DNA from: a virus
Length of the DNA: 42,446 nt
Virus record (IMG/VR): IMGVR_UViG_3300045988_059300
Strand: one strand, 5' to 3'
Position numbers and translations under genes: made by a program. Shown in pieces: positions 10,110-32,964 of the stretch. Under the pieces are notes generated by a model. It saw only the letters and a program-made list of their open reading frames with translations. It did not search any database and had not been told where the DNA came from. Numbering within the stretch: position 1 is the first letter of the stretch; every line of letters starts with the position of its first letter.

Positions 10110-13100
10110 TTATGCGTAGGGGTTATTTTTCTCCCAACTCTTGTTGATGATTGTCCAGAGGTCCGCCTTTTGCTCTTGGGTGAAATTGTGGCTATCCAGA
10201 TAAGCCCTGGCCTCACTTTTGGATTTGTACCCATTCTTGTCCGCATCAATTCCGTTCTTCATATCCGCATACTGTTCGACAGTCAGACCGGCAGCCACTG
10301 CCTGCTTCGTTTTCTCATAAGCCGTCCCAGACATGATCTCGGCGCCGTACTGATGATAGAGGGCCAAGTATTCCGCTGGAGATATTCCAAGATCGTTCTG
10401 CGCTGTCTCTGCGTTGTTTACCCATGCCGGAACACTGTCGGCTCCCAGAATCGTTTTCTTTGCCCGTTGGCTGGCGTAGTCATTACAGAGGTCCAAAAGC
10501 TCCGTCTTGGTAGTATCATTCGCCCTCTTGTATGCGCTGCTGCCCATCATGGAGGACAGCGTAGTCAGTGCGACGGCGCCGCGATCCCGGAGATAGTCCT
10601 GCCGCTCCTCGTAGGTCAAGGACTTGCTATAGGTATTGCCATCTTTTGTGTACGAGAGCTCCGATGGGGCGCTCTTAGAAGGATAGAAGGAGGTCTCCCC
10701 CGTCCGCTCGCGCAGCGCTTCCATGTTTTGAGACACTTCGCTCTGGTCGTAGGTATTGACTCCCACCGGGTTCAGCAGCGCGTTCAGCAGGCGGTCCGCA
10801 GTGCTCCCCTGATACAGCTTTTCCTCCCCCAGTGGGTTGACAGACCCCGGCAGGGTTTCTCGCAAACCCGGGATGCTGTTCTTCACGCTGTCCACAACCT
10901 GCTCTCCGAGCGTATCCCCGGAATAGGTATTGCGGGGTCGGTCATCCAGCCCACGGGCCGTAGACCGCAGAATGTTTGGTATCAGGGAAGAAGCTACCGT
11001 GTTTGCCCCCTCCTGCAGTAATACTTCCTGTGGGTCCTGTCCATATTTGATGATGTCCGTTGCCGCATTCCCAATGAACTGCATCACCGGAAGCTCCGCA
11101 GTTGCATCCATAAAGGATTTCGGCACAGCATTAAAAGAAGAAACGATGGGGTTCCCTTCACTCTTTGCCATCTCCGTTCCCAGGTTCATCAACAGGTTCA
11201 GCGGCTCGATGGAGGACAGGTCGATCAGGGTGTCTCCACTCTGCCATTCCGTGCTTCCACCGGACAAAGCCCGTTCCGTTGCGGAGATATTCAGTTGGGT
11301 TCCCGTGATGCCCTCGCTGGAATTCAGCGCCGCCACGTCCGGATCATCCTCGTCCCCTGCCTGAGACAGAAGCCCCGACTGGGCCAAAAGCATAAATCCG
11401 TAAGCAATGGCGGTTCCGGTGAGGCCCCGGGTAGTGTCAGAGACGGCCCGGGCCTGTGCAGCCGGGTCCACATTCTGACCGCTGACAGCCTGCGCCACGG
11501 TTTTACCCATCTCCACAATACCCTTGACAGCGTTCGCGGGAGAATACTCCAAACCGCGAGATGCCAGATTTCCGGCTACCCGAGTAAACGGCGCCACAAT
11601 GTCACCAGCTCCGAAGGCATGGACTGTACGGCCGCGGATGCTCCGTCCACTGTCACCAATGCCAGCAACCATATTCAGTACATCATGTACCTGCTGGATC
11701 GCAAGAGAAAGTTTGCTGTCATCCTGGAACGTCCGGTATCGTGCAAGTGCGTCAGCTTGGTTCTGTGCATAGTCCTTGTCAGTAGTCTTGATCTTCCCTT
11801 GGTCGACCAGCGCCTGGGTACGGCTCGCATTGCTGCGGGCAAGGCCCTTGTAGAATTCGTCTGTGGCATTCAAAAGGTACGCTTGGTTCCGCTCCAGCAT
11901 AGACATTACACGGTCCACAAAGTTTCCGCTGGCTTTGAAGGTCCGGCGGCTGCTGGTGCCGTACCGGCTCTGATTACCGCCCATGTCTACGTCCATGGTG
12001 ATTTCTGCAATCGCCATTTGCATCGCCTTGGCTGCCTGCCCCAGATTGGAACGTTCATAGGCCACGCTGCGGGTCCCTGTTACTTTGGACAGCGCCATAT
12101 CCAGCAGGGCCGCCCCCTTCATGGAAAGCGCGTCCAGGCCGTAGAAAGACGTGTTTCCGGTGATGTTCTTCACCGCCGTTTTGGGGTTGGACAGCATGTT
12201 CAGGATTTGGATAGTCTTGATCTTCTGACCCATGTTGGCCGGTGTGGAGTCGGTGCTGAGCGCAGAAGTGGAAGCATAGGCGAACTGCTTCAACTGGTCG
12301 AATGTCAGGGAGTCCAAGCTGCTGTTTGCAACCGCGGTCATAATCCGGCTCTGCCGACCAGTTAAGCCATTCAAAACGCCCCGCTGCTGTGCAACGTTCA
12401 GGATAATGTCTTTCAACTGCTGCGGCTCTGCGGCCTGCTCGATCTCCGTATCCCACTTCACAATCCGTTGGAAGGTGCTGCGCTTCTCTTCTTCGGAAAG
12501 ATTGGAGTTTTGCAGATTGTCCCACGCCTCCAGCTCCGAAGATTGTCCGTTCTGGTTGTCCCGGCGGCTCCACTTGGCGTTTGCCTGAACGCCCTGACCA
12601 GTGGCAGTCTCATGCTCCCGCATGATCCGCAGGAAGTCCGTATATTCCTCAGAGGGGATCTCCAGATTTGCGGACCTGCCCTGCAGCTCCTGCTGGATCA
12701 TCCGGGCGGCATCCATCTGGGGCGCATTCCATGCCGTCGCATCATCTAGGGACTGCACCAACTCATGAAAAGCCGTCTCGTCAATGTCTCGCAGGAAGGT
12801 CCGCTGGCCGTCCCGAACGGCGTACACCAGTTCTTCTGCCAGATTGAGAGAACGCCCTTCTGTTTGGCTTTCATACCGGAACAGCTTGGCATAGTCCTCC
12901 CGTGAAAGGCCGGTGGCGGCTTCTTGATATTGATTATACGGCATGGACTCCGCAAGGCGGCTGGTCCTCTCCTGCCCTTCCATGCCGGGGGTGGTGAAGC
13001 CCCGCCGGGCGCTGCCCAGGTTGTCATAGGTTGGCGGTGCCTGTGTGTCTCCGGTTTCCTGCCGGGTATCCCCAAACAGAATTTGCGCCAGAGCGTCCGA

Positions 13101-15059
13101 ATTGACATTTTCCGCGCCGGGTGCTATAGTAGTATTAGAAGCAGGAACTCCTCGGGAGGCCCGCCCGTCTGTCACGGTGTCGACAGTGCCCGGTGTTGTT
13201 CCTGCACCATCCCCCGCGTCTACTACGGTATCGAGGTCACCCGAAAGGGCAGAAGTTCCGTCTGGTGTAGATGCGGGGGATTCGTCATTTCTAAAGATGA
13301 CGTCTCCATTTGCATCCACTACCTCGTGAAGATAGTAGCGGTTGCTGGCGCTGTCCTTCGTGACGATGACACCTAAGTAAGTAGGCTGCCCCCGGTAGGT
13401 AATTGGCGCTGCGAAAGTGTAGGTATCATAGCCGCGCCCTTTCCAGTTCTGTTGATAGTCAATCTGCTGGCCGTTTCGGATTACATCCGGGACGGCCGCA
13501 AATGTCTCGATTTTGGAAGGGCCTGTCCCATGTCCGATCATGCTGGACTTGATTCTCCCCCTGGAGAATAGAACATCACCAAAGCCGGGCCGATTGACCT
13601 TATTCCCAATCGCATTGACAAAAGAGGCAAGCCGATCCACCAGTTTTCCACTTCGGGGGATTTCTGTCCCAGTAACCTCGGCAACCGGATTCATGTTTTG
13701 GATATGCGGAATAGACTGACGTACACGGCTAACAAGCGTTGGCTCCAAAAAGCCTGTAGTGCCCTCTGCAGCCTCCTGTGCCTGGGTGGTGGAAACGGGT
13801 GCAGTTTCCGTTTGCGCCGTTCCTGCGGCATCTGTGGCCCGGCGATTGGCATTTTCGGCGCTCCTGCGGCCAATGCTTCCAGCAGCTCCAAGCGCACCAC
13901 CCAAAGCGCCTCCAATCAGGCCCTGATAAATGGTGTCTGCCAGATAGTCCGGGTCCTGATATTGCTGCAGGGCGGTTTTATCATAGGTGATCCGCTGCAG
14001 CACCGGCTGGACCAATGCTTCCACAACTTCCTCTCCACCTTCGCTTAATGCGGAAAGGACCGTTTGTCCAGCCGCACTCTGGCCCAGGCGTCCGGTTGCT
14101 TTTGTGATAGCATTGTCCAGGACACCGGAACCAAAGGTCCGCCGAAGTGGGGCGGCCACGTTGGCGATCTTCTCTGTCGCTACACTGAGCGCCGCGCTCC
14201 CCGCGCCATAGGCCACCTGCTGCCCCAGCGTCGCCCCCTCCTGCCGGGCCTGCTGCGTCCCGGAGCCAAAGCCACGGACAGCCATTGGAACAAGCGCACT
14301 CCCTCCAGTGAGAGCTGCCAGAAGAGCGTCGCCCGCCAACTGCGTCCCGGCCACACCCACGTCCACCGCGAACTGACCGACACTTCCAAGCCCCTCCTTT
14401 GCCTCCGCGATGTTCTGTGCCGACTGGGCCGCAAGACGGTCCGCCGTATCATACACGGCCTGAGTGGCCCGTGCAATGGGGGCGTGCTGCTTCACAGCTG
14501 CGTCATGGTATCCGGTAGAACGGCTGTCTGCACGGGAGGCAAGCATCTCCAACTGCTGCCGCATGGATGCTGTGATAGGTGTTCCATCATCCAGCGTCCC
14601 ACGCTCCAACATCTCCCGGTAGTGGGCTGCATTCTCTTCCTCCTGGTTGGCCCGCCGGGTGTAGGAGCTGCCAGCAGTATCATAAGAACGCAGCAGGTCC
14701 AGAAAGGTCCCGCCGGTACTCGTAAAGCCCGCCGCCGTTCCCTGTGCAGCGCCTTTGAGCATACTCCCGCCGCGGGACGCCTCCGGTGTGGAGATCACCT
14801 GCCCGGTGGTGCTGTCCACCACTTCGCTGATGTGTCCAGTGTCTCGCATCAGGATATTTAGAAGCGTATCCGGCTTCGTCTTTTCTTCGGCAACTTTCCG
14901 CTGAGATTTTGCCGAGCTGCTGATCTTGCCGGTAATGGTATTCTTTCCGGCCTTTGTTTTCGGCTTGGTCGTAATCGCCTCAACATTCGGACGACTTCTT
15001 ACCGGATCAGGGTCATACGTCAGTGTCTCACCTGTGCTGATCCTTTTAAATGTCGGCAT
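10110..15059 (-). CDS. Large (1649 aa) polyvalent-type virion/ejection protein candidate
   Basis: AAAGAGGTGA RBS. N-terminal helical and Gly-zipper segments (GLIGGALGGALGAAGSIG). Mid domain GHGTGPSKIETFAAVPDVIRNG...YLGVIVTKDSASNRYYLHEVVD resembles nuclease-like modules of phage polyvalent proteins. Confidence 0.6.
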   Translation of the reverse strand: MPTFKRISTGETLTYDPDPVRSRPNVEAITTKPKTKAGKNTITGKISSSAKSQRKVAEEKTKPDTLLNILMRDTGHISEVVDSTTGQVISTPEASRGGSMLKGAAQGTAAGFTSTGGTFLDLLRSYDTAGSSYTRRANQEEENAAHYREMLERGTLDDGTPITASMRQQLEMLASRADSRSTGYHDAAVKQHAPIARATQAVYDTADRLAAQSAQNIAEAKEGLGSVGQFAVDVGVAGTQLAGDALLAALTGGSALVPMAVRGFGSGTQQARQEGATLGQQVAYGAGSAALSVATEKIANVAAPLRRTFGSGVLDNAITKATGRLGQSAAGQTVLSALSEGGEEVVEALVQPVLQRITYDKTALQQYQDPDYLADTIYQGLIGGALGGALGAAGSIGRRSAENANRRATDAAGTAQTETAPVSTTQAQEAAEGTTGFLEPTLVSRVRQSIPHIQNMNPVAEVTGTEIPRSGKLVDRLASFVNAIGNKVNRPGFGDVLFSRGRIKSSMIGHGTGPSKIETFAAVPDVIRNGQQIDYQQNWKGRGYDTYTFAAPITYRGQPTYLGVIVTKDSASNRYYLHEVVDANGDVIFRNDESPASTPDGTSALSGDLDTVVDAGDGAGTTPGTVDTVTDGRASRGVPASNTTIAPGAENVNSDALAQILFGDTRQETGDTQAPPTYDNLGSARRGFTTPGMEGQERTSRLAESMPYNQYQEAATGLSREDYAKLFRYESQTEGRSLNLAEELVYAVRDGQRTFLRDIDETAFHELVQSLDDATAWNAPQMDAARMIQQELQGRSANLEIPSEEYTDFLRIMREHETATGQGVQANAKWSRRDNQNGQSSELEAWDNLQNSNLSEEEKRSTFQRIVKWDTEIEQAAEPQQLKDIILNVAQQRGVLNGLTGRQSRIMTAVANSSLDSLTFDQLKQFAYASTSALSTDSTPANMGQKIKTIQILNMLSNPKTAVKNITGNTSFYGLDALSMKGAALLDMALSKVTGTRSVAYERSNLGQAAKAMQMAIAEITMDVDMGGNQSRYGTSSRRTFKASGNFVDRVMSMLERNQAYLLNATDEFYKGLARSNASRTQALVDQGKIKTTDKDYAQNQADALARYRTFQDDSKLSLAIQQVHDVLNMVAGIGDSGRSIRGRTVHAFGAGDIVAPFTRVAGNLASRGLEYSPANAVKGIVEMGKTVAQAVSGQNVDPAAQARAVSDTTRGLTGTAIAYGFMLLAQSGLLSQAGDEDDPDVAALNSSEGITGTQLNISATERALSGGSTEWQSGDTLIDLSSIEPLNLLMNLGTEMAKSEGNPIVSSFNAVPKSFMDATAELPVMQFIGNAATDIIKYGQDPQEVLLQEGANTVASSLIPNILRSTARGLDDRPRNTYSGDTLGEQVVDSVKNSIPGLRETLPGSVNPLGEEKLYQGSTADRLLNALLNPVGVNTYDQSEVSQNMEALRERTGETSFYPSKSAPSELSYTKDGNTYSKSLTYEERQDYLRDRGAVALTTLSSMMGSSAYKRANDTTKTELLDLCNDYASQRAKKTILGADSVPAWVNNAETAQNDLGISPAEYLALYHQYGAEIMSGTAYEKTKQAVAAGLTVEQYADMKNGIDADKNGYKSKSEARAYLDSHNFTQEQKADLWTIINKSWEKNNPYA

Positions 15060-15071
15060 GGTTTCACCTCT

Positions 15072-16340
15072 TTAATTAGACAACGAAATGTCATATTTGG
15101 CGAACAGATCGGCTAGTTGTTGCTTCTGATAAGCGGACAATTCGCCCCATCTGTTTGTGACATTCCCCAAAGCGGCATTTTCATTACCGGATGCCAGCTG
15201 CGCCGCCAAAGATTTCCCTAGTGCGTTAAATTCGTTTGGAGAGATTCCGCCTCCGCCGAGTTTCCCAGAAGCAACGGCATTTTTGATGGTTGTATCCCGG
15301 TCAGCTTTATGGAGGTTGCCGGAAGAAGATACCGTTCCCTGTTCATTTTCGTTTGACACATCCACATCAGAACTTCTTCCAGAGCTTCCCCGCCCGCCGC
15401 CCGAACCGCCAGTAGACATTGCAGCAAGCCGCATATTCAGCGCGTCGGCTGTGGAAATCCCAGCCTCGTTCAGCGTATTGGTGTCCGGCATCACGCCCGC
15501 CGCCAGCATCGTCATCGCCAGATTATAGGCATATTCCCGGTTCTGTGCCGAAAGGCTGTCCTGATACTCCTGCTGGGAAGCGTCAAACTGCTGCTGCCAC
15601 TGGCTGTTTCCAGCGTTGAACTGCGCTTCCCAGTTGGCCTGCTCCTGGGCAAGCTGTGCCGTCTGCATGGCGGCGTTGTCCTGCCGCACATACTCATTGT
15701 ACAGGGCCTGGGCCATCTGGTAGTTCCCTTCCGCCTGCGCCTGCACTGCCGCGTTGCGGTATTCAATCGCCAGCTGCTGCTGTTGCAGGGCGTTTTCCGC
15801 AATGGCATCGGACTCCTTTGTGGAGATGTCCGTGAGGTTGCTTTGCAGCACAGCGGAGTTTGCAAGAGCCGCCTGCCCGCTGGTTCCGGTGTTCAAGCCT
15901 CGTGCGTTTGCGTACTCATTAAAGGCCATTCGGGCAATATCATTCTGAGATGCCGCTTCATTCCGGGCGCCCTGGTAAATGCCGGGAATTTTCTCCGCGT
16001 CTGCTTGCAGACCTGCCAAATTCTGTTCGTATGCCGATTTCAGAGCCGCCAGCTGTGCGTCCGTGTAGGCTTTGTACATGTCATTCAGGTATCCAGAAAG
16101 GTCCGTGGGCTGGAGAGAGTCATAATAGGAAGAGTCTCCGCCTCCGGAATATCCGCCTCCACCATACCCCTCCTGTTCCCGTTCCTGTCTGTTTTTGACA
16201 TTGATGGCCTTTTTCGCATACCCATTATCATCGTAGGTATATTCATAGTCTCCCTTCGTGACCGTCTGCCCAGCCAGTCCCTCGTTTCTGGACATATCCG
16301 GTCTGGTTTTCCCGCGGATAGACTCCTCTGCAGCTGCCAT
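15072..16340 (-). CDS. Q/A/N-rich, Gly-run protein (422 aa), possible internal virion protein
   Basis: GAGGTGA RBS. GYGGGGYSGGGDSSYY, long Q/A coiled region, GGSGGGRGSSGRS. Confidence 0.75.
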   Translation of the reverse strand: MAAAEESIRGKTRPDMSRNEGLAGQTVTKGDYEYTYDDNGYAKKAINVKNRQEREQEGYGGGGYSGGGDSSYYDSLQPTDLSGYLNDMYKAYTDAQLAALKSAYEQNLAGLQADAEKIPGIYQGARNEAASQNDIARMAFNEYANARGLNTGTSGQAALANSAVLQSNLTDISTKESDAIAENALQQQQLAIEYRNAAVQAQAEGNYQMAQALYNEYVRQDNAAMQTAQLAQEQANWEAQFNAGNSQWQQQFDASQQEYQDSLSAQNREYAYNLAMTMLAAGVMPDTNTLNEAGISTADALNMRLAAMSTGGSGGGRGSSGRSSDVDVSNENEQGTVSSSGNLHKADRDTTIKNAVASGKLGGGGISPNEFNALGKSLAAQLASGNENAALGNVTNRWGELSAYQKQQLADLFAKYDISLSN

Positions 16341-16360: not shown

Positions 16361-16425
16361 AAAAAAAATAAGCGCCAAAGCCCGGATCACTCCGAACTCT
16401 GGCGCTGAACGCTCTAGCTTGTTAT
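16361..16425 (-). promoter_or_regulatory. Conserved leader element copy A: 16-nt box + hairpin + U8 tract
   Basis: The - strand reads AUAACAAGCUAGAGCG-UUC-AGCGCCAGAG-UU-CGGA-GUGA-UCCG-GG-CUUUGGCGCU-UAUUUUUUUU. It is homologous to 32709-32776. Confidence 0.75.
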
Positions 16426-16439
16426 CAAGTTGTACAACA

Positions 16440-16468
16440 ATTATACAACAAAAGGGGCCGCTATGCAA
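16440..16468 (-). promoter_or_regulatory. Sigma-70-type promoter candidate (TTGCAT-17-TATAAT)
   Basis: - strand: ttgcat agcggccccttttgttg tataat. The -35 element lies in the loop of the upstream terminator. Confidence 0.5.
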
Positions 16469-16479
16469 GCGGCCCCCTT
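16444..16479 (-). terminator. Intrinsic terminator after the 16492-16935 gene
   Basis: - strand: aagggggccgc-uugcaua-gcggccccuu followed by uuguugu. Confidence 0.7.
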
Positions 16480-19544: not shown

Positions 19545-19623
19545 TGAAATCAGGAGGCCGCAAGGAGGGCGGCGACGTGTACCAGCCCTTGTCCCTTACG
19601 TCCTCCATGCTTAAATTTTCTCA

Positions 19624-20682: not shown

Positions 20683-20689
20683 AGATAAA

Positions 20690-20722
20690 GGAGCCGGGTC
20701 AATCCCCGGCTCCCTTATTTTT
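20690..20722. terminator. Bidirectional terminator
   Basis: ggagccggg-tcaatc-cccggctcc is followed by cttattttt on the + strand, with a T-rich run on the - strand too. It overlaps the stop of 20699-20959. Confidence 0.7.
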
Positions 20723-20959
20723 GTAAAGCTGTTTTGCTACATCCTTAACCCTCCGGAATATATACTTTTCGTGATCGCTAACTGTGCTACGATACCAGCC
20801 CAATTCTGCTGCCACATCAATTTGATTCCACTTATCAATAATACGCCGCCTTGCGATCAGTTCATCGTCTGTATGGAATGCTGCTTCTTCAATAACTTTT
20901 TCCAGCTGAGAGCGCAAGAGCTTATCCAGTGGGTCAGGCAGTTTCACTTTTGCGCTCAC
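20699..20959 (-). CDS. Small HTH (sigma region-4-like) protein, last gene of the late/lysis unit
   Basis: GTG start 8 nt after GAGGGAGGA. WNQIDVAAELGWYRSTVSDHEKYIFRRV. Confidence 0.6.
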   Translation of the reverse strand: MSAKVKLPDPLDKLLRSQLEKVIEEAAFHTDDELIARRRIIDKWNQIDVAAELGWYRSTVSDHEKYIFRRVKDVAKQLYKNKGAGD

Positions 20960-20977
20960 AATCTCACGTCCTCCCTC

Positions 20978-21595
20978 TTATTTCATCAGCTTCCACATTC
21001 GGTACAGCATCGTACACATCTGCTGCCGGGTAACAGGCCGGGAGAGCATCAGGTCCCCCTCGCTGTTGCCCGTCAGGATGCCGTTCTTTACGGCCCATTC
21101 CACGCCCTCCTTGTGGGCGGGAGACGGTGTATTGTCCATAGTGACCTCCTTGTCATAGGCGGGCCGTACAGCCCCCAAAATCTGCCCTAGCGTCCGGGTC
21201 CGGCGCATGACCTCTCCCCCGTCGCTATCGTTGCCAATGGCGGTGTTGCCCTCGATGGCGGTGATGGAGCTGCCGCCCACCGCCTCCACGATGCCGCAGT
21301 GGTCCGGGCGCTTGTCCCCGCCCCAGTCGTAGATCACCACGTCTCCGGTCTGGTAGTTGGATGTTACCCAGTTCCCGGCGGACTTGGCGGCGTTCATCAA
21401 GATTGTGCAGCTGGCGGTCTCAATGGGCAGCTTGACACTCGCCTGGGCAAAGACCCACTCCACAAACATCACGCACCAGGGCTGGCCGTCTAGGCCGTAC
21501 CACGCACCGTATTTCGTCCGGTTGGAGTTGGCTGGGGTCTCTTTGTACCCCAGCTCTCCACGGGCGATGTCAAGGAGTTCCCGTACTGTTGCCAT
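20978..21595 (-). CDS. Endolysin: CHAP domain + single SLH-like C-terminal repeat
   Basis: GQPWCVMFVEWVF (Cys), RPDHCGIVE (His). C-terminal AHKEGVEWAVKNGILTGNSEGDLMLSRPVTRQQMCTMLYR. Confidence 0.8.
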   Translation of the reverse strand: MATVRELLDIARGELGYKETPANSNRTKYGAWYGLDGQPWCVMFVEWVFAQASVKLPIETASCTILMNAAKSAGNWVTSNYQTGDVVIYDWGGDKRPDHCGIVEAVGGSSITAIEGNTAIGNDSDGGEVMRRTRTLGQILGAVRPAYDKEVTMDNTPSPAHKEGVEWAVKNGILTGNSEGDLMLSRPVTRQQMCTMLYRMWKLMK

Positions 21596-21785
21596 TGTCC
21601 GCCTGCGCTTTCTTCTCCGCCTGGGTGCCAAAGTAGAAGGCGATCACCACGGTGTACACTGTCAAGAACTGCTCTGCTGTCACGCCGCCGGTGCAGGTCA
21701 GGTAAGCAAATACCGCCGTCAGCACGATGGTGGCGATGGACTTCACCGCCAGCAGGTTCCCGAGGCGCTTCTTCAGTGTCTCCAT
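21570..21785 (-). CDS. Holin (71 aa, two TM helices)
   Basis: GGAGGG RBS. SIATIVLTAVFAYLTC and LTVYTVVIAFYFG with a charged tail. Sits immediately upstream of the endolysin. Confidence 0.75.
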   Translation of the reverse strand: METLKKRLGNLLAVKSIATIVLTAVFAYLTCTGGVTAEQFLTVYTVVIAFYFGTQAEKKAQADNGNSTGTP

Positions 21786-21786
21786 A

Positions 21787-22122
21787 TCAGCCCTCCGGCT
21801 CCACCAGGGTGTCGCCCTTCAGCTCGTACTTCTTCCCGGCGATGTACACATAGGCAGTCTCAGCGCCCATGTTGACATCCACAGTCTTGCCGTTCACCAC
21901 ATGGACCTTCTCCATGCAGCCTACGCCGTGGTCCATCAGGCCATAGCCGTTGACGGTGTCGGGAGTCTCCCCTGCCGTGGTCGCCAGGAACTCCTCCTGA
22001 GTGATTACATTGCGGTTGGGGTCCAGGGTAAAGCCCGCCTCCGCCTCCCTCAGCGCCTCGTTCGCCTCGGGCAGGGTCATTTCGCCAGTGGTGTACTTGT
22101 TCAGAATTTCGTTGGTAGTCAT
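21787..22122 (-). CDS. Hypothetical lysis-cassette-associated protein (111 aa)
   Basis: AAAGGAG RBS 7 nt before ATG 22122. Confidence 0.65.
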   Translation of the reverse strand: MTTNEILNKYTTGEMTLPEANEALREAEAGFTLDPNRNVITQEEFLATTAGETPDTVNGYGLMDHGVGCMEKVHVVNGKTVDVNMGAETAYVYIAGKKYELKGDTLVEPEG

Positions 22123-22296
22123 AAGTAAGCTCCTTTCAAATATCCGGCTTGACCGCCGGTTTCTAATGATGTAAGATGTTATTGCCCGTTGTGCAGACGT
22201 GTGCTGTTTTGATAGCGCTCCCTCCGCGTTAAGTCGCAATGGACGGAGACAACGAATACTACGGGCTTGCGGCGCTCCTTCGGGGGCGTCGCTTTT

Positions 22297-22635
22297 TTAC
22301 AGCCCAATGCGGGCCAAAATAAACGCAATTACCGCCGCCAGCACCGCCCACACGGACTTGTCCACGATGGCTTCCCAGCGGCGTCCCGGTTTTGCCGTCT
22401 GTTCCTCCTGCTTTGCCAGCAGCTTTTCGATGTTTTTATCCATGTTGGAAAGCTGCTCGTCCAGCTTGGCGTCTCGGGCAATCTGCTCCCGCTGCCAGTC
22501 ATAGAACGAGTTATGGAACTTCTTGGAGTCCTGCTGCCAGTCCTCCAGGGCCTTGATGCGCCCCTCCAGACGGGCTGCTGCTTCCAGGCCAAAGCAGTCA
22601 TGCCGGGGGTCTCTAACGCACTTCTCGTCAGCCAT
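22297..22635 (-). CDS. XhlA-like coiled-coil protein with C-terminal TM anchor
   Basis: Coiled coil LEGRIKALEDWQQ..LDEQLSNMDKNIEKL, then VWAVLAAVIAFILARIGL. Confidence 0.6.
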   Translation of the reverse strand: MADEKCVRDPRHDCFGLEAAARLEGRIKALEDWQQDSKKFHNSFYDWQREQIARDAKLDEQLSNMDKNIEKLLAKQEEQTAKPGRRWEAIVDKSVWAVLAAVIAFILARIGL

Positions 22636-23095
22636 TGGGCACCTCCCCCAGGTCCTCCCACTTCACGCCCACGCTGCCGGGTTCCCACACATTGCCGTCC
22701 TGCCCGGAGCGCCAAACATGGCCCTCATAGGTGCAGCAGTCCCCGGTCATATACGGCGAAGTGGAGACGGCGATAAACGGCAGGGCCTTGTCCGGGTCTG
22801 TGGACCATGCAAAGCCCCACTGTGCGGGCAGGTCCTCCGGCTCCTGGGTGTTGTAGATGGTGCTGTCATAGGGTTGGAGGAGACGCACCACTCGGCCCGC
22901 TGTGGAACAGCAGACAAAGCCCGCTTCCCGTTCCAGCATATTCATGGCCTCACAGGCCGCCGTAAAGCTGGGGATGTAGTCCTCGGAGGCATACAGCTCC
23001 GTCCCCGTCATGTCCGGGGCCTGGGCCTGGAGGGTCTGTGCCCTCGCAAGCCCGGTATCCCGCATGGTGGTAAGTACAAACTGCTTGTCCGTCAT
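22628..23095 (-). CDS. Fibre-associated protein with CBM5/12-like C-terminus
   Basis: YMTGDCCTYEGHVWRSGQDGNVWEPGSVGVKWEDLG. Confidence 0.6.
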   Translation of the reverse strand: MTDKQFVLTTMRDTGLARAQTLQAQAPDMTGTELYASEDYIPSFTAACEAMNMLEREAGFVCCSTAGRVVRLLQPYDSTIYNTQEPEDLPAQWGFAWSTDPDKALPFIAVSTSPYMTGDCCTYEGHVWRSGQDGNVWEPGSVGVKWEDLGEVPNG

Positions 23096-23343
23096 ACTTC
23101 GTTCACGCCCTCTCTGATTGCTTCTGCAAGCTCCGCATAGGTCACATACTCTGGTTTGGGTTCCGGCTCCGGCTTCCCATCATCCTCCACGGTAATCTGC
23201 CCTTGAAACGCCTCCGCCTGAGCGATAGCATAGGCCTCCTCCGTATAGGTCACAGTAACAGGAGAAAGTAGCGTCTCAATGTCCGGCTCCTCGGGAGTAC
23301 CATAGTTGATCTCTGTTTCCAACTGATATTTGATGATCTTCAT
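23092..23343 (-). CDS. Small acidic protein downstream of the fibre gene (83 aa)
   Basis: AAGGGGGA RBS and ATGA coupling to the next gene. Confidence 0.6.
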   Translation of the reverse strand: MKIIKYQLETEINYGTPEEPDIETLLSPVTVTYTEEAYAIAQAEAFQGQITVEDDGKPEPEPKPEYVTYAELAEAIREGVNEV

Positions 23344-23353
23344 GGTGTCCCCC

Positions 23354-25252
23354 TTAATCCGTGGTTTTGGTGTAGGCGATAACAACCCAGGAATTGCTCG
23401 TGCTGAATCCCGCCGCTGTCGTTATGGTGATGTTTGATCCGTCAACCAAAATACCAGTGATACCCGGATTGCTAACCAGATTATCTCCACCGTTGTTTAA
23501 TCCGTACAGTGCGGATAACCGTAGCCCAATGTTTTGTACTCCATGCGCCACAGACTTGGATGTTCCCGCAGAGAGGGCTCCGGTGTTTATGGCTTTCTTG
23601 TAGACTGGCTTGCTGTTATACCGCTCAGTGGTGCGGTACTCGACGCCGATTTGCATGGGGGGATGCTCCCACTCAAACGGCTGCCAAGCAGACGGGTCTG
23701 ACGATGATTTTTTTAATTTTATCATCCGCCATCCGCACAGCCCCGCGTCTGCACTGCCGATATTGGATAGCACTGCATAGTTGGCGTCGCCCTTATATAA
23801 GAGCGATATCGTAGTACCCGCTTTGCCGTACACCGCAGGCGGATAGGCCAGCACCAGTTTTGCGGTCTTGTCAGGCATCCCGTCCAGTACGGCGTCTACC
23901 TTGGCGCAGTATGTCTCATAGGATTCTCCTGCGCTGGTAGTTTCAATGCTCTGCACCGCATCCCCAAAGCCAAACCCGCCAGGAGCCAGACTTTCTGTCC
24001 CACGCACACACTCCAGCAGTGTCAGCGGGAAAATGTTCTTCCCATTCTGTTGCAGTTGAGCCGTGCTGCCGGTATTGGCAAACGTCGGCGCCGTCTTGGT
24101 ATACGTCCACGATCTCGTCACCGTTACCACGCCGCTTCCGGGATTGGTGGATGCCGTGATCTTGATCGTGCCGCTGCCGGTCGGCAGGTCCATCACGGGG
24201 ATTTTGATGGTGGCACCGTTTGTTGCCGTGAACGTTCGGGTAGTTCGTCCAGCAGATTCCGTAACCGTCAAAGCACTGGTTCCGCTGGAGGACACCGAAT
24301 ACTGCACATCATTTGTGAGAGTGCCCAAGCTGCCGTCGGACCCGGAAATTACCAGAATGGAAACAGGAACTACATCAACAAGGGAACTGATTGTATATTC
24401 GCCATATTTTCCATTGGCGCCAGACTTTACCCGATACTGAACCGATTCCCAGGTCCCGGCAGTTTCAGAAAAAGTCAAATCGGCTCCAGAATACACCTGC
24501 ACCCAGTCAGCGTCCGTGTTTGCTTTGCGCTCCAGAATGTAGCCGTCAGCGCCGTCCACAGCAGGCCAGGAGACTGCAAGCTGTTTGCCCTGCATAGCTT
24601 GAACAGGGACAGTTATCGCATGTGGAGGAGCAGACGCCAGAGAGAGTGTCCCATCGTCAGTTACGCTCAATGTGGAAGGGACGGTAAAAGCGGGGCGGCT
24701 GCCAGCTTCTGCAGTAACGCCAGTCGAATCAGAACTTCCACCTGCATATACAAAAAAGGCAGATGTGAGATAAGATGTATTTGGTGTTCGAGTCCATTGC
24801 GAATTCGTTTCCCCGTTCAAAAAAGCTTTTTGCAAAATCGATGCGATAGGAAGAATATTTCCCTCAAAATTTGCATCAGCCGGGAGCGTAAATCCAAGCT
24901 CTGTTCTGGAAAGTTGAAAAATCGCTCGTTCTAACGTGCTTAATGTTTTATCTCCGTAACCAATGGTATATTGAAATTTTGTGGTCCCAATTACCGTCAG
25001 AAAATCAGAGTCCAGAAGATTCTTGTAATCGCTGTTGAGCCAGCTATCAAGTGCGCTAGAGGCGTATGTATTTACCTGAATGTTATTCCACACCCGATTA
25101 TCATAGCATTCCTTCCGCACTAACAGCGTCCGCCCGGCTCCGTTTAAACCGCTCTCATAATCATGCTTCGCCACATAGAATTCCACCGGGGAACCATTCT
25201 CATTGAGCTTTACCAGTGTGCCGACGGCCACCTGTCCTAACTGCTGTGCCAT
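23354..25252 (-). CDS. Tail fibre / receptor-binding protein (632 aa)
   Basis: GGAGGTG RBS. N-terminal DUF6273-like region (WTRTP..AGSRPAFTVP) and an Fn3-like segment (AVSWPAVDGADGYILERK..YRVKS). Confidence 0.7.
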   Translation of the reverse strand: MAQQLGQVAVGTLVKLNENGSPVEFYVAKHDYESGLNGAGRTLLVRKECYDNRVWNNIQVNTYASSALDSWLNSDYKNLLDSDFLTVIGTTKFQYTIGYGDKTLSTLERAIFQLSRTELGFTLPADANFEGNILPIASILQKAFLNGETNSQWTRTPNTSYLTSAFFVYAGGSSDSTGVTAEAGSRPAFTVPSTLSVTDDGTLSLASAPPHAITVPVQAMQGKQLAVSWPAVDGADGYILERKANTDADWVQVYSGADLTFSETAGTWESVQYRVKSGANGKYGEYTISSLVDVVPVSILVISGSDGSLGTLTNDVQYSVSSSGTSALTVTESAGRTTRTFTATNGATIKIPVMDLPTGSGTIKITASTNPGSGVVTVTRSWTYTKTAPTFANTGSTAQLQQNGKNIFPLTLLECVRGTESLAPGGFGFGDAVQSIETTSAGESYETYCAKVDAVLDGMPDKTAKLVLAYPPAVYGKAGTTISLLYKGDANYAVLSNIGSADAGLCGWRMIKLKKSSSDPSAWQPFEWEHPPMQIGVEYRTTERYNSKPVYKKAINTGALSAGTSKSVAHGVQNIGLRLSALYGLNNGGDNLVSNPGITGILVDGSNITITTAAGFSTSNSWVVIAYTKTTD

Positions 25253-25564
25253 TTAAACACCTCCGTTGTAGGTTACTTGGATTTGAGGGGTCAGAATGGA
25301 CGTAAAGAACGATGGGGCCATCTTTTCAACGGTGATTGTTCTATCCGGAATCTGCCCCAGGACAAGCCCTTCCAATTCATCACGGCCAGCCTTTTCGGAG
25401 TCAATCTGCGGTGTCAGCGTCTCATTCAAAAACTGTTTGATGGCCTGACCGCCCTCGTCAAATTTGCCTTTCAGCTCCGCAGCCGTCAGGCCGCCCACGT
25501 CGTTCGGTTCATCGTCCAGAGCGGAGATGATCGCCATGTCCTTCTCAAATTTCGACAGAGCCAT
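25253..25564 (-). CDS. Fibre N-terminal anchor-like protein (103 aa)
   Basis: ALDDEPNDVGGLTAAELKGKFDEGGQAIKQFLNETL, a motif common at N-termini of Firmicutes phage fibres. Confidence 0.55.
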   Translation of the reverse strand: MALSKFEKDMAIISALDDEPNDVGGLTAAELKGKFDEGGQAIKQFLNETLTPQIDSEKAGRDELEGLVLGQIPDRTITVEKMAPSFFTSILTPQIQVTYNGGV

Positions 25565-25567
25565 GTA

Positions 25568-27304
25568 TCAGGCCCCCCTTTCCTGCGGAACTTCTCCCGT
25601 CTGGTTGATAACCCGCTGCAACGCCCCATATCCGGCGCCGCCCCGCAGCGGTGGATTTTCCTGCCCGGCAGGCGCGGGGCCTCCCCCATTCCCGGAGTTG
25701 CCGCCTGCGCCGCCCATCGCCATTGCCATCTGCCGCTGCTGGTCTGCCTGTAATACCGCAATCAACGTCTCCCGGTCTGTGATCTGACCGGCAGGCAGGC
25801 GCTTCAAATACTCCACTGTGGAAATCTTGCCCTGCATCAGCAAATTGTCCAGCGTCTGCATAGAGGCGATTTCGGACCAGTAAGAGGATGCTCCCACATC
25901 CAGGTCCACGGTAAAGTAGTAGTCCTTCAGGCTGGAAAAATCGAACGGAGCTAAGACCTTCCCATTAGACCCCGGCATGGTGAACATCACACGGTTGCCA
26001 CCTAGAGCTGTCTGGTCAACAGGAATCTCCACGTAGCGGTCCCCGTAATACTCGCCCATAAACTCCATGTAAATCCTGCCCTGGTCTTCAATGGCCTGCA
26101 GCAGCGTTTGCTTTGTCAGCTCCATAGGAGTCGCCGCCGCCCGCTGCAGGGCAATGATAGCGGAGGTGTTGTCGGGCCGTGTATCGCCAAGGGCCACGTC
26201 GGAAGCGCCCAGAAACCGCTGGGTGTAGGAGATTGCCAAGTCAATGAATTGGCTGATCTGCGGAGAGATGGTGGCCGGGTCGATGATTTTCGCCACATTC
26301 TCCACGCTGCCGTTGACGGCGATGGCCGCGCCCACCCGGTTGCTCCACTTGGCGACCTTCGTCTTGTCGAAGATGATCTTGGGATATGCCAGCATCATCA
26401 GAGAGATCATGGACATGGCAAACAGTTTGTTTACGAAAATCTGGTTCGGAATGAGCCCTGTAATCATGGCCTGCCCATGGTAGCAGTCCTGTACAAAGTC
26501 CCAGGACATCCAGGAGATGGGATACAGCTTGATTCCAAGGTCCCATTCGGGCTTGATCTCTTGATTCTGCGTGCATTCATAACCATGGATGGTTCCGCTC
26601 TCGTCATCCCGCCACAGCCGCAGCAGAACCGTAACTTTATTTCCGCCCAGCTCGTCCATGCGGCTATCCCCGCTCTGCTTGCTGTCAGCAGTGATGCTGT
26701 CCGCATCATCCTCCCTGACGCCGTTTGCGATTGCCCGCTTCTTGGCCTCAGAAACCAGCATCCGGCGTTCAATCATGATATAGGGCTGACTCTGAACGTC
26801 TCGGCTGTTGGGGTTTCCAAACAGCACCTGTGTGTTCATCAAAACTTCCGTTTTGATTGCGCCCTTGCTTGGCTGCCCTGTCTCTACATCAGGGTCCCAA
26901 TAGGTGTACAAGCAGCCGTCCCCATCCACCGCGGCGTTCCTGGCAAACTCGCGGATACAGGCCCCCATTTTGTTGAACTCGAAAATAGACTGGAATTGGT
27001 CATTCAAGAGGTCTGTCAAAATCTCTGCATCCTGACCTGTCAGTTTTCCGTTGGAGGGCAGCGGTTTTGCGTGGAGCTTCAGGTTGTCTGTAGACACATT
27101 CGCCACGGAAAACAAAACGACACGTTTCAGGAAATTGAAAACAGGAGTAGGCAGGCCATTGCTATGTACTCCCTCCCACTGCTTGCCAATGAAAAAGTTC
27201 TCATTGACATTCACGCAGTCATACAGCTGAATTCCCTGATTAAACTGGACCCCAGCCTGATACTCCGCAGACACCTTCTGAGGTGTCGGATCAAACTTCT
27301 TCAT
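25568..27304 (-). CDS. Portal protein (578 aa)
   Basis: AAGGAG RBS. NENFFIGKQWEG..GLPTPVFNFLKRV. Gly-rich C-terminus. Size and position fit a portal. Confidence 0.75.
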   Translation of the reverse strand: MKKFDPTPQKVSAEYQAGVQFNQGIQLYDCVNVNENFFIGKQWEGVHSNGLPTPVFNFLKRVVLFSVANVSTDNLKLHAKPLPSNGKLTGQDAEILTDLLNDQFQSIFEFNKMGACIREFARNAAVDGDGCLYTYWDPDVETGQPSKGAIKTEVLMNTQVLFGNPNSRDVQSQPYIMIERRMLVSEAKKRAIANGVREDDADSITADSKQSGDSRMDELGGNKVTVLLRLWRDDESGTIHGYECTQNQEIKPEWDLGIKLYPISWMSWDFVQDCYHGQAMITGLIPNQIFVNKLFAMSMISLMMLAYPKIIFDKTKVAKWSNRVGAAIAVNGSVENVAKIIDPATISPQISQFIDLAISYTQRFLGASDVALGDTRPDNTSAIIALQRAAATPMELTKQTLLQAIEDQGRIYMEFMGEYYGDRYVEIPVDQTALGGNRVMFTMPGSNGKVLAPFDFSSLKDYYFTVDLDVGASSYWSEIASMQTLDNLLMQGKISTVEYLKRLPAGQITDRETLIAVLQADQQRQMAMAMGGAGGNSGNGGGPAPAGQENPPLRGGAGYGALQRVINQTGEVPQERGA

Positions 27305-27315
27305 TGCTCAACTCC

Positions 27316-29154
27316 TTACTTCACGTTCCCGGCATACCGCAGTTGAATGTCCGTCTCCAGAACAGTCGCCGTCGCGGATGCGCTCTTGCTCTTGAAAATC
27401 AGCTTGTAGAAAGTCGCCTTCTTCACCTTCAGCTTCAACCGGTCCACTTGGGGTTTCCGGTTGGTTCGGAAGGACCAATGGCGGAAATCCGCATGGGTAA
27501 AGGTCGCCAAGCTGGATGCCACAACCTTCTCCGGGTAATCACTCCTCCGGTTACTCTGTGCCGTCACTGTGATCCGGGCGTTGGTTTCCGGCTGGATTGC
27601 AACGAACAGCATAGGGGAGTATTTCAGCAGCCAGTCCTTGTCAAAGTCCATGGAGCCTGTGGCGGCATAGGCATCGATCTCTTCTGTATCATCATTTCGA
27701 TACTGCCGGGACAGATGCTTGATTTTTCCATCCTCCGTGATGCCGTAGGTGTCATCCTCCACATCCACCATCTGCTGGAACGGCATATTGGTGTAGTAAT
27801 ACCAGCTGTCATTTGCGTAGTTCAGAATGACGGCGTTTCCATTCCACAAAAACCAGTATTCGTGCTCCCGCTTTCTGTTGAAGGTTCTGACCTCCGAAAG
27901 CGCCCAACCGCTGATCGTGGCCGCGATCCGGTCTGAAATGCGCCGTGCATTCTGCTCATTGTCCGTGATATTCCCGGTACTGGACGTAGACCGCCACTGG
28001 TAGATGCTGCTGCCGTCCAGTGTCAGCGGATTGTTTTCCAGTAACCGCACCTGTCCGGGAGCGTCATTCCCGATCTGCCGGTTGACCGGCAGCACATAAA
28101 ATCCGGGCGTGGTGATTCCGGTGTCCAGCGTCACGGTGCTGTAGGTGATCGACCATGCGCTGTCCCGCTTGAAGGCCAGCAGCCGGGCATAATGCCGCAC
28201 AAGAGCGGTCAGCGGCGTGTTGCTGTCCCCGATGGCCGCCTCGTATAGGTCCGGGAAATAATCCGCCGACGCGAGGCCGGTGTCTCCGTTGATTCCGCTG
28301 TAGATGGTCCGGTTTGTCCCATCTCCATACAGGAACACACGGGTATCGTTGGAGCCGTTGTAGAGCTCAGAGAAGTGCATCCCAGTCACATCGCCACGGG
28401 CGCCATCGCCTTTCTTGTAGGTGATGGTCACAGTATTCGTCCCCTTGGCCGGGGCTGTGTTGAAGGTCACTTTTCCAGCCGCGGTGTCGGCGGTATACTG
28501 CACATCCGTCCCCTCTACCGCGGTCACACTGTCGATCTCTTTCTCCGGCAGGAAAAAATCTTTCGCCTCGCCGTCCGGGGAGAAGCGTACACGCCGCAGC
28601 CCCGTCAGCCGGTTCACATTCTCCAGCTGTGTTCCGCTGCCCTCCGGCGTGGTTGCTGTCTGTACCAGCGGGATATAGCCTTCCACATCCTGAAAGGTCT
28701 CCTCTGATTCTCCAGTCCAGCTCTTGTACTCATGGCCGTTCAGCAGATAAACCTTCTCGTCAAAGCCGAAAAAGGAGGTCTTGTCCTGGGTACAGGTCCC
28801 TACTGCCTTTACACTCTCCAGCAGAATGTCCACATCGAAGATCACACCGCCAAATGCGCACAGCAGATGGTATTCCCCTCCCACCATGCCATACCAGCAG
28901 CCGCAGAATACCGGGTGCTCTTCCACGCCTTCTTCCTGGCTGTCCGCCCAGCTATCCCAGGCAGAGCGAAGGGCAAGAACCGTCTGCGTACCTGGACGGA
29001 TTTGGAGATGGCCGTCCCTGGTAATGGCAAAGTTCCGCATCTCAGAGAGCTCTCCAACTCTGATTTTGGTGTCGCCGTCCTGGTTTTCGTTCAACCCCAG
29101 AAACTCCTTGATTTTCAGAATGGTCAGATTGTTCGATGTGGAAATGCTTGCCAC
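27316..29154 (-). CDS. Tail structural protein (612 aa; tube/nozzle-type candidate)
   Basis: GTG start after GGAGGGGGTGA. Beta-rich and lies between terL and the portal. Confidence 0.5.
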   Translation of the reverse strand: MASISTSNNLTILKIKEFLGLNENQDGDTKIRVGELSEMRNFAITRDGHLQIRPGTQTVLALRSAWDSWADSQEEGVEEHPVFCGCWYGMVGGEYHLLCAFGGVIFDVDILLESVKAVGTCTQDKTSFFGFDEKVYLLNGHEYKSWTGESEETFQDVEGYIPLVQTATTPEGSGTQLENVNRLTGLRRVRFSPDGEAKDFFLPEKEIDSVTAVEGTDVQYTADTAAGKVTFNTAPAKGTNTVTITYKKGDGARGDVTGMHFSELYNGSNDTRVFLYGDGTNRTIYSGINGDTGLASADYFPDLYEAAIGDSNTPLTALVRHYARLLAFKRDSAWSITYSTVTLDTGITTPGFYVLPVNRQIGNDAPGQVRLLENNPLTLDGSSIYQWRSTSSTGNITDNEQNARRISDRIAATISGWALSEVRTFNRKREHEYWFLWNGNAVILNYANDSWYYYTNMPFQQMVDVEDDTYGITEDGKIKHLSRQYRNDDTEEIDAYAATGSMDFDKDWLLKYSPMLFVAIQPETNARITVTAQSNRRSDYPEKVVASSLATFTHADFRHWSFRTNRKPQVDRLKLKVKKATFYKLIFKSKSASATATVLETDIQLRYAGNVK

Positions 29155-29157
29155 AGG

Positions 29158-30561: not shown

Positions 30562-30591
30562 GCGCTCACCTTTCAGGGAATGACTAGGGGA

Positions 30592-30615
30592 ATAGGCCCC
30601 CTTGCGGGGGCCTAT
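30592..30615 (-). terminator. Strong stem-loop directly after the major capsid gene
   Basis: ataggccccc-ttgc-gggggcctat, a 10-bp stem. No clean U-tract. Confidence 0.5.
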
Positions 30616-30620
30616 ATTGC

Positions 30621-31676: not shown

Positions 31677-31678
31677 GT

Positions 31679-31714
31679 GGCCCTCTCTTTCTTTTCACCA
31701 GATGCGAGAAGGCC
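31679..31714 (-). promoter_or_regulatory. Stem sequestering the capsid-gene Shine-Dalgarno
   Basis: On the - strand, ggccuucuc (8 nt after the scaffold stop) pairs with gagagggcc (contains the SD, 2 nt before AUG). 9 bp with one G-U. Confidence 0.45.
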
Positions 31715-31721
31715 CCTGAAA

Positions 31722-32636: not shown

Positions 32637-32708
32637 TGGTTCCTTCTTTCCCCGCCTGGTCTGGCGGCGTGTATTTCAAGCGTCCGTGGTCTCGGGCGTC
32701 TTGCTCAG

Positions 32709-32776
32709 AAAAAACAAAAAAGACGCCAAAGCCGGGATCATTCCCAGCTCTGGCGTCTTGCGCTCTAGCTTGTTAT
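32709..32776 (-). promoter_or_regulatory. Conserved leader element copy B: 16-nt box + hairpin + U-tract
   Basis: The - strand reads AUAACAAGCUAGAGCG-CA-AGACGCCAGAG-CU-GGGA-AUGA-UCCC-GG-CUUUGGCGUCU-UUUUUGUUUUUU. The box overlaps the stop of 32773-32964. Confidence 0.75.
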
Positions 32777-32964
32777 TTCATTTTGAACTCCGGCAAATTT
32801 CCGGTGATCTCCTGCCCCATGAAGATTGTGGGCCACCACTCCCGCCTGCACTTGCGGCAGTATACCGGCGTCCCATACAGAACCGTGTTTCCCGTCACCT
32901 TCTGGATACCCTTATGGCATTTGGGGCAGGTGTACCATCCATGTACTACCATTGGCCGAACCAC
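32773..32964 (-). CDS. Cys-rich KTR-like zinc-ribbon protein
   Basis: WYTCPKCHKGIQKVTGNTVLYGTPVYCRKCRRE. Start at GTG 32964 or ATG 32952. Confidence 0.6.
   Translation of the reverse strand: MVRPMVVHGWYTCPKCHKGIQKVTGNTVLYGTPVYCRKCRREWWPTIFMGQEITGNLPEFKMK

Follow-up and report, generated by a model that had tools for sequence, protein, structure and literature searches.

RNA-binding antiterminators of the Firmicutes (e.g. LicT/SacY-RAT, HutP, ANTAR and PyrR) bind nascent RNA overlapping the 5′ arm of a terminator and decide between termination and read-through, with repeated short RNA motifs being a common mode of recognition. To our knowledge, hardly anything has been characterised of how temperate phages of gut Clostridia (Oscillospiraceae, Flavonifractor and relatives) control their late genes. 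In phage Mu, the Com protein binds the mom mRNA at 5′-CC(N)2-3GAG-3′, in a small hairpin located just 5′ of a translation-inhibition stem-loop that Com is proposed to melt (PMC6483171). The subject of this analysis is an RNA element found in two copies in a viral sequence of 42,446 nucleotides (nt) (i.e. IMG/VR record IMGVR_UViG_3300045988_059300; the whole stretch is hereafter the window). Each copy consists of a short box, a hairpin and a run of U residues placed ahead of a block of late genes, and one copy overlaps the end of a gene for a small zinc-ribbon protein of the Pfam family Cys_rich_KTR (hereafter KTR). The element probably gates the switch-on of structural genes in phages of gut bacteria.

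A duplicated RNA element with the form of an intrinsic terminator

The 16-nt box (ATAACAAGCTAGAGCG) occurs exactly twice in the window, at 16425-16410 and 32776-32761, both on the − strand, and a search allowing up to three mismatches found zero further sites (chance expectation 0.15). In both copies the box is followed by 3-4 nt, a hairpin and a U-run. Copy 1 (16361..16425, −) has a 16-bp hairpin with a GUGA loop at 16406-16371 and a U-run at 16370-16361 (tail UAUUUUUUUU), the predicted fold having an energy of -29.2 kcal/mol (z = -5.5). Copy 2 (32709..32776, −) has an 18-bp hairpin with an AUGA loop at 32759-32720 and a U-run at 32719-32709 (tail UUUUUUGUUUUUU), with a predicted fold of -36.1 kcal/mol (z = -7.8). 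Both therefore have the intrinsic-terminator form of GC-rich stems with 8 to 12 U residues directly after, and they were the two strongest terminator-like sites on the − strand of the window. A covariance model built from ten window-type elements, whose E-values are rough, matched copies 1 and 2 with 81 and 75.7 bits, respectively.

An earlier note on this DNA, made from the sequence alone, had described a − strand RNA element with an identical 16-nt box, a covarying hairpin and a U-tract, one copy in the leader of a gene for a protein of 422 amino acids (aa) and the other in the leader of the scaffold/capsid genes. This description was borne out, including the three compensated pairs between the copies (A:U↔G:C, G:C↔A:U and C:G↔G:C), to which one U·G↔C:G difference was added. 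The internal loop placed in the hairpin by that note was not found, as G·U wobbles close it and the RNA stems of the − strand are uninterrupted over 16 and 18 bp. The + strand transcript contains A·C mismatches and gives poorer folds (-19.6 and -29.1 kcal/mol), supporting the − strand RNA as the functional form.

The core of the element is a direct repeat, comprising R1 (GC-N-AGAGCG), 5 nt and R2 (CGCC-R-GAG). R1 occupies the 3′ half of the box (i.e. GCUAGAGC at 16418-16411 in copy 1 and the corresponding 32769-32762 in copy 2, both −), and R2 (GCCAGAG at 16403-16397 in copy 1; GCCAGAGC at 32754-32747 in copy 2, both −) constitutes the 5′ arm of the predicted intrinsic terminator. The box is thus identical within the window, as had been claimed, but the true core is shorter than 16 nt and is a direct repeat of the terminator 5′ arm.

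Conservation of box and hairpin in related phages

Relatives were retrieved by capsid similarity, a search that is blind to the motif; this and the zinc-ribbon search described below are protein-based retrievals and provide the unbiased evidence. The capsid-based search identified a lineage with 74% capsid identity having a variant box, ATCATAAGCGAGAGCG, in the scaffold leader. On the same contig a second copy, preceded by a terminator and a promoter, stands before a 66%-identical homolog of the 422-aa gene, and both copies share the variant box and differ in their stems. The two copies are therefore syntenic in two lineages with a concordant change of the box, a concordance that is documented in these two lineages only. 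An Oscillibacter relative (L065, capsid 70% identical) contains neither the element nor the zinc-ribbon gene.

An exact-box scan of IMG/VR yielded 33 loci, ~8 of which are apparently chance matches; the remainder comprised near-identical phages and two diverged types with the same box and other upper stems. Further types have the box form AAGCAAGAGCG. Across ten distinct hairpin sequences 92.7% of cells were paired as compared to 78.5% in shuffles, none of 500 shuffles reaching the observed value, and double (i.e. both-side) changes were present at 9 of the 15 hairpin pairs, with slid controls being 32-55% paired. The terminator form of stem and U-run was kept in 38 distinct relatives. At the variable A/G position of R2, 38 distinct elements exhibited A:U (17), G:C (17) or G:U (3). 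Positions G0, C1, G4, G6 and C7 of R1 were invariant and A3 and A5 were each present in 37/39. The box is better conserved than the stem, stems diverge freely, and the loops vary (GUGA, AUGA, GGAA, GAAA, GAGA and UUUU). Box and hairpin are thus kept in dozens of distinct relatives, which clearly contradicts the lack of conservation that the earlier note had named as refuting its idea. At the two window copies no Rfam match was obtained in gathering mode and only sub-threshold terminator-like noise in E-value mode, and an Rfam scan of twelve distant loci gave 0 matches.

A KTR zinc-ribbon gene directly upstream of the element

The gene that overlaps copy 2 (32773..32964, −) matches Cys_rich_KTR (PF14205) with E = 5.8e-7 and 29.7 bits against a cut-off of 25.5 bits, orf6 of Tn916 scoring 113.5 bits. 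Its likely start is the ATG at 32952, giving 59 aa, and its TAA stop codon is formed by positions 2-4 of the copy 2 box, within which the ORF therefore terminates; the partner protein is a C4 zinc ribbon of 59-63 aa. This gene is the candidate trans-acting factor. It had been overlooked in the earlier note in favour of three small helix-turn-helix (HTH) candidates, none of which is syntenic with the element, whereas the zinc-ribbon open reading frame (ORF) is syntenic in every relative and encodes a putative remote relative of Com. ORFs 1053-1409 and 4400-4723 gave weak non-regulatory PHROG matches only, and ORF 20699-20959 gave a sub-threshold Sigma70_r4 match.

In all types, the scaffold-leader copy is immediately preceded by a KTR homolog. 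An IMG/VR search with the zinc-ribbon protein alignment alone retrieved 80 loci with 32-100% identity, and the covariance model matched the 3′ end of the KTR gene in 57/57 loci searched, a set from which the 23 relatives nearly identical to the window or to the type 3-5 groups had been omitted. Among elements retrieved by DNA pattern, the KTR gene was directly upstream in 72/~78. An exact 20-base A-variant pattern was found in 88 IMG/VR stretches as compared to ~0.1 expected by chance, this set too having been retrieved with a pattern that fixes part of the motif. The family is large, with 1094 cluster representatives at E ≤ 1e-3 (50% identity clusters), and a literature search yielded no publication that assigns a function to the KTR family or to the box–terminator element.

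Several comparisons are suggestive of the KTR zinc ribbon being a remote relative of Mu Com, and fall short of proof. PHROG 6417 ('translational regulator') matched Mu Com (2.8e-10; query sequence 100% identical to AF083977), the KTR protein of Flavonifractor phage Cormatin (1.4e-5), whose gene is itself annotated 'translational regulator', and Tn916 orf6 (2e-4). PHROG 5602 was matched by these three proteins and by the window ORF. Alignment of the KTR and Com profiles with hhalign covered the whole zinc ribbon with a probability of 77.7% and E = 1.9e-5. The Mu site GCCUGCGAGC resembles GCCAGAGC and GCCUGAGCC, the repeats of the present element being GCC-A-GAGC, GCC-U-GAGCC and GC-UA-GAGC, sited 5 nt before the stem and within the stem, at positions that are either 3′ of the KTR gene or part of it.

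The window also encodes a Mom-like DNA modification protein (6084-6686, +; phrog_1384, E = 9e-44), the gene for which is not beside the Com-like gene, unlike Mu, where com directly precedes mom. Two more small zinc-ribbon genes (4751-5032 and 8834-9154, both +) are Lar-like and match phrog_599, with 4751-5032 also matching phrog_5602.

Selection on nucleotides at the coding end of the KTR gene

In a large distant class of relatives the KTR protein ends in …RGQSV(K/E)RQSP*, encoded by GGC CAG AGC GTN NNN CGC C(A/G)G AGC CCA TGA. This coding sequence is a direct repeat of R1 (GGCCAGAGCG) and R2 (CGCCRGAGCC) spaced 15 nt apart, R2 again being the 5′ arm of a long predicted terminator that is followed by a U-run and by the Shine-Dalgarno (SD) sequence and ATG of an HNH endonuclease gene. 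The window box corresponds to R1 of this class with CAG changed to TAG. Among 25 distinct distant KTR ORFs, conserved residues outside the motif used 2-6 synonymous codons, whereas the codons over R1 and R2 were invariant (GGC 24/24, CAG 25/25, AGC 23/23, CGC 24/24 and AGC 25/25) and the two spacer codons were free. The motif is not translated in the lineage of the window, and no ORF precedes copy 1. Second copies are present in three other loci (L323, L248 and L315), of which the copy in L323 is non-coding, belongs to the leader of a gene resembling the large terminase and has exact R1 and R2. Cormatin has one and the same 11-mer (GCGCCTGAGCC) as R1 and as R2, the two being located 28 nt apart in different reading frames. 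A T variant, GCCTGAGCC, occurs twice in L250 and twice in Cormatin, i.e. R1 and R2 change together. The frozen codons, the untranslated copies, the second copy of L323 and the differing frames in Cormatin show that the motif acts, and is conserved, as nucleic acid and not as peptide.

The tails of KTR family representatives are of the forms GQS…RQS, EPEP, APEP…SA or SLSLRA. These would fit a single nucleotide motif, CC-N-GAGC(C), read in three frames, a reading that is drawn from protein sequences.

In L315, a single viral contig, two complete elements lie 140 nt apart (150-366, −). No second copies were found in the available DNA of type 3, 4, 7 and 8 phages, and a match at 3609 of L002, considered as a second copy, is probably due to chance.

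Genes and promoters around the element

The typical relatives carry the KTR gene and the element between the replication and the packaging/head genes. Both Cormatin and L374, a 36.7-kb contig from the European Nucleotide Archive (ENA), exhibit the order lysogeny/HTH, replication, KTR, element, HNH, small terminase, large terminase, portal, protease and capsid. L374 has a single perfect early promoter (TTGACA-17-TATAAT) at the head of the strand, and the element is the sole strong same-strand terminator in 18 kb, ahead of the late genes. This is the position at which a delayed-late switch is expected.

The window represents a temperate phage with its structural and lysis genes, including holin and endolysin, and its integrase (37525-38613) all on the − strand, and related DNA derives from human-gut viromes and Clostridiales/Oscillospiraceae genomes. 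The small terminase gene is located at 33661-34155 (−). Copy 2 lies between the zinc-ribbon ORF and the scaffold-like/capsid genes, in the leader of a scaffold-like ORF of 304 aa (31722-32636, −), next to which is the major head protein (30621-31676, −). The block behind copy 2 (20685..32636, −) additionally encodes the large terminase (29158-30678, −), portal (25568-27304, −), a Hoc-like protein, holin and endolysin, and the next strong − strand terminator is reached only at 20718-20685. Copy 1 ends 20 nt 5′ of the ATG of the 422-aa ORF (15072-16340, −), which together with a 1649-aa LPD3 polyvalent-type protein (10110-15059, −) forms the block behind copy 1 (10110..16340, −); this transcription unit stops at a terminator at 10104-10085. 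No conserved promoter-like sequence was seen between either hairpin and the genes behind, indicating that these genes need read-through.

Copy 1 is preceded by a sigma-A-type promoter (16440..16468, −) with a -35 of TTGCAT (16468-16463), a 17-nt spacer and a -10 of TATAAT (16445-16440), which was read from the sequence and is under the threshold of the scan. The copy 1 box begins 14 nt past this -10. The -35 is held in the loop of an ordinary, box-less terminator of the upstream unit (16451..16479, −), and this overlap of terminator and promoter recurs in a relative (L168, 4968-5006) despite a different stem sequence. The relative with 74% capsid identity has the same promoter layout (TTGCGA-17-TATAAT) before its copy 1 counterpart.

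The 1649-aa ORF contains an LPD3 'large polyvalent protein' domain slightly under the Pfam cut-off and, with the 422-aa gene, forms a separately promoted unit behind copy 1. Around the start of the scaffold-like gene there are four hairpins that share an invariant AGACCA hexaloop (loops at 32692, 32662, 32599 and 32538, −), two being in the leader, the second of which abuts the ribosome-binding site, and two in the opening 100 nt of the ORF. All related phages conserve the leader pair, the stems of which covary (CCGCC/GGCGG, GCGGC/GCCGC, CCGGC/GCCGG and CCGGGC/GCCCGG), and no Rfam match was obtained; the set looks like an operator for an RNA-binding protein. A full-length RAGATH-31 RNA (RF03101; 80 bits against a gathering threshold of 71.8) is located in the late region at 19553-19606 (−), between the endolysin block and genes without assigned function.

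Proposed mechanism and alternative explanations

Our proposal is that each copy is a conditional intrinsic terminator gating a late-gene block, with the Com-like KTR protein binding R1/R2 RNA and causing antitermination, and we hold this proposal to be evenly balanced between right and wrong. By default, RNA polymerase would stop at the element, which it would reach from the small-terminase (terS) operon in the case of copy 2 and from the sigma-A promoter (TTGCAT-17-TATAAT) in the case of copy 1. The KTR protein, encoded directly 5′ of copy 2, would bind CC/GC-N(1-2)-GAGC motifs in the nascent RNA. Occupancy of R1, and probably of R2 too, would cover the base of the stem needed for termination, and with the hairpin prevented or melted the polymerase would read through into the scaffold/capsid/terminase/portal genes behind copy 2 and the 422-aa/1649-aa genes behind copy 1. 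As the terminated transcript would itself be the source of the KTR protein, the module would delay late expression in the manner of a timer. The presence of strong terminators and the lack of a conserved promoter-like sequence before essential structural genes argue for factor-dependent read-through. These two features also support the suggestion in the earlier note of a factor-controlled attenuator for late genes, but not the accompanying analogy to nut sites. The data establish the structure of the element, its conservation and covariation, the selection on R1 and R2 at the nucleotide level, the strict synteny with the KTR gene and the location at the early/late boundary. We infer protein-RNA binding, an antitermination outcome and an action that is local rather than processive; local action is suggested by every gated block having its own site abutting its own terminator.

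Several observations weigh against this proposal. Homology to Com is weak, the hhalign probability being <80%, and the Pfam models of KTR and Com give no cross-match. A Foldseek search of the PDB with an AlphaFold model of KTR (predicted local distance difference test score (pLDDT) 85.7) returned generic zinc ribbons only, with E > 0.28. In the window, R1 (GC-UA-GAGC) has a single C ahead of its spacer, and spacers in the element measure 1-2 nt as compared to 2-3 nt for Com. Approximately half of the distant elements have a G in R2 where R1 keeps an A, and hence the repeats are not strictly equivalent. Most of the genomes examined contain a single copy, and types 6-8 were retrieved by a pattern that fixes the N5 spacer and CGCC. 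Finally, the synteny of gene and element could reflect shared descent of a gene and its own terminator, not regulation.

Com, the only candidate relative that is characterised, is a translational activator acting on a hairpin beside its binding site (PMC6483171), so KTR might bind the box and thereby affect how the downstream gene is translated or how stable its mRNA is. Just 10-20 nt separate the U-run from the next ribosome-binding site, and the predicted fold of copy 2 in L323 pairs R1 with a CUUUGG overlapping the SD. The pairing of R1 with the SD is not conserved across types, however; the SD and start codon are never in the hairpin, and a U-run, the hallmark of an intrinsic terminator, always follows, making such post-transcriptional control unlikely. 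We consider equally unlikely a site read at the DNA level, in which the box, as double-stranded DNA or non-template strand, loads a factor on RNA polymerase (i.e. resembling ops/RfaH or Q binding) or belongs to a late promoter overlapping an insulating terminator. The motif is indeed short, orientation-specific and at a fixed distance from the hairpin, copy 1 is at ~+8 of a sigma-A promoter in a layout recalling PR′-qut-tR′, and NCBI labels Com relatives 'Com family DNA-binding transcriptional regulator'. Against this, a nearby promoter is lacking at copy 2 and in almost the whole family, no conserved -10-like sequence was seen in or after the hairpin among variants inspected by eye, and the R1/R2 spacing of 15 nt (28 nt in Cormatin) misfits sigma-70/sigma-54 geometry. 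Moreover, the G·U-preserving covariation shows that the transcript folds, and the known activity of Com is RNA binding.

Another explanation dispenses with a factor altogether, the elements being ordinary leaky terminators whose box and stem base are relics of a KTR 3′ coding end or of a recent duplication or gene conversion. The window box is recognisable as the distant-class GGC CAG AGC with CAG changed to TAG, and the two copies within one genome share the box exactly. Relics would not account for synonymous sites being frozen over R1 and R2 only, for a motif kept when untranslated, in other frames and in copies far from the gene, or for a box that is constant while stems diverge freely; it is also unlikely that capsid genes would tolerate, ahead of them and unregulated, long U-runs after hairpins as stable as -29 to -36 kcal/mol. 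We regard this explanation as improbable, and more so than the two preceding ones. The least credible reading, to which we attach very little weight, is the nut site of the earlier note, in which the box would be boxA and the hairpin boxB, with host Nus factors and an N-like protein producing processive antitermination. A linear box followed by a hairpin, with one site promoter-proximal and the other after a small gene, does recall nutL and nutR, but the boxA consensus (CGCUCUUUA-like) is unmatched by the box AUAACAAGCUAGAGCG and its core GC-N-AGAGCG, of which only the reverse complement begins CGCUCU. Furthermore, the loops vary, the hairpin of at least 16 bp with its U-run is itself the terminator, PHROG/Pfam scans of the ORFs tested found no arginine-rich N-like protein, and the pairing of each gated block with its own site and abutting terminator points to local action.

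Other functions of the box were considered and rejected. As a small-RNA seed it has no complementary target of at least 13/16 nt in the phage, with only short G·U-rich matches being found. Pairing of the box with the terminator 3′ arm as an alternative structure fits some variants but fails for types 5-8 and for G-type R2. A promoter within the box (sigma-70, extracytoplasmic function (ECF)-like AAC…CGT or sigma-54) is contradicted by ATCATAAGC, which breaks the AAC, by the lack of a conserved -10 and by wrong spacing, and an antisense promoter in the reverse complement of the box is not conserved. Two direct copies 16 kb apart and RNA-specific covariation argue against cos/pac or terminase-binding repeats. 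Translation-coupled attenuation by a ribosome ending the KTR ORF could operate in the distant class; it is impossible at copy 1 and also in L120, whose stop codon is well 5′ of the box.

More tentatively, and with somewhat less than an even chance of being correct, the proposed antitermination by KTR may represent a widespread and unrecognised protein-dependent switch, in which a Com-like KTR protein of ~60 aa reads a duplicated CC-N-GAGC motif in the terminator 5′ arm and times the early-to-late transition in many temperate phages of Clostridia/Firmicutes. The switch would be reused, as orf6, in conjugative transposons of the Tn916 family, and the motif would often lie in the 3′ coding end of the KTR gene in any of three frames. 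The element and its partner gene at the early/late boundary offer a concrete candidate switch for phages of gut Clostridia. If the proposal is true, it provides a function for Cys_rich_KTR, including orf6 of the medically important Tn916 family, and broadens the Com paradigm, in which the translation of a single gene is activated, to entire operons controlled at the level of transcription. An RNA signal that overlaps a coding end and is visibly under selection at the nucleotide level can help annotation and the discovery of further elements, and the box–terminator with its 60-aa protein would provide Firmicutes with a gene switch that is both compact and orthogonal.

Comparison with known systems

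Antitermination by lambda N at nut sites shares with the present element a linear box and a hairpin in nascent RNA, one site lying close to a promoter and the other behind a small gene; the differences are that a boxA match is absent, the loop is not conserved, the hairpin is a terminator and no N-like protein was found in the ORFs scanned. The lambdoid Q/PR′-tR′ system is similar in that the regulator gene is directly 5′ of the terminator blocking the late operon, and copy 1 has a constitutive-looking promoter with a terminator within ~75 nt, from which a short RNA is expected when the factor is absent (compare PMC7547250). Q, however, recognises DNA at a sigma-dependent pause close to the promoter and is processive, whereas most of the present sites are promoter-less, every terminator is abutted by the motif and the protein has no kinship with Q families. 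A promoter in the arrangement of a Q-type qut site precedes only copy 1 and its ortholog in L168, and is absent at copy 2 and at >50 copies located at KTR 3′ ends.

Tn916 orf6 encodes a Cys_rich_KTR member and shares the architecture of the phage element, with CAGAGCC twice, 20 nt apart, the second at the base of a 20-bp hairpin after the stop codon. This hairpin is perfect over its 20 bp, with -33.6 kcal/mol and z = -8.5. Unlike the phage genes, orf6 sits between tet(M) and the convergent orf9, so that the hairpin falls between two convergent genes, and its U-run is weak. At the orf6 3′ end, in the Tn916 of Streptococcus phage IPP61 record KY065497 (L371, 1640-1730), there is also a tandem AGACGCA-A-AGACGCA flanked by the CAGAGCC repeats. 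A study of termination and antitermination in Tn916 makes no mention of orf6 (PMC11658703).

With Mu com-mom, the present locus has in common a C4 zinc ribbon of ~60 aa with a disordered tail, a gene immediately 5′ of the RNA target (here a candidate target) on the same transcript, and, less exactly, a short motif resembling CC-N-GAG just 5′ of a hairpin, which in Mu is proposed to be opened by binding. It differs in that the hairpin is a terminator with a U-run and not a structure sequestering the SD and start codon, as the SD and ATG are 10-20 nt or more past the U-run and outside the hairpin. Additionally, the targets are late structural operons and not mom, the motif is duplicated with R2 as a stem arm and up to two or more sites per genome, and the protein belongs to a separate Pfam family (Cys_rich_KTR, of Firmicutes phages and Tn916) from Com (Zn_ribbon_Com, PF10122). 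As compared to LicT/SacY-RAT, HutP, ANTAR and PyrR, the protein has a zinc-ribbon fold of ~60 aa, is phage-encoded and would serve a developmental switch and not metabolism, and an alternative antiterminator helix is not evident. The element, which is absent from Rfam and for which no description was found in the literature searched, is best read as a variant of RNA-binding antitermination combined with Com-type regulation.

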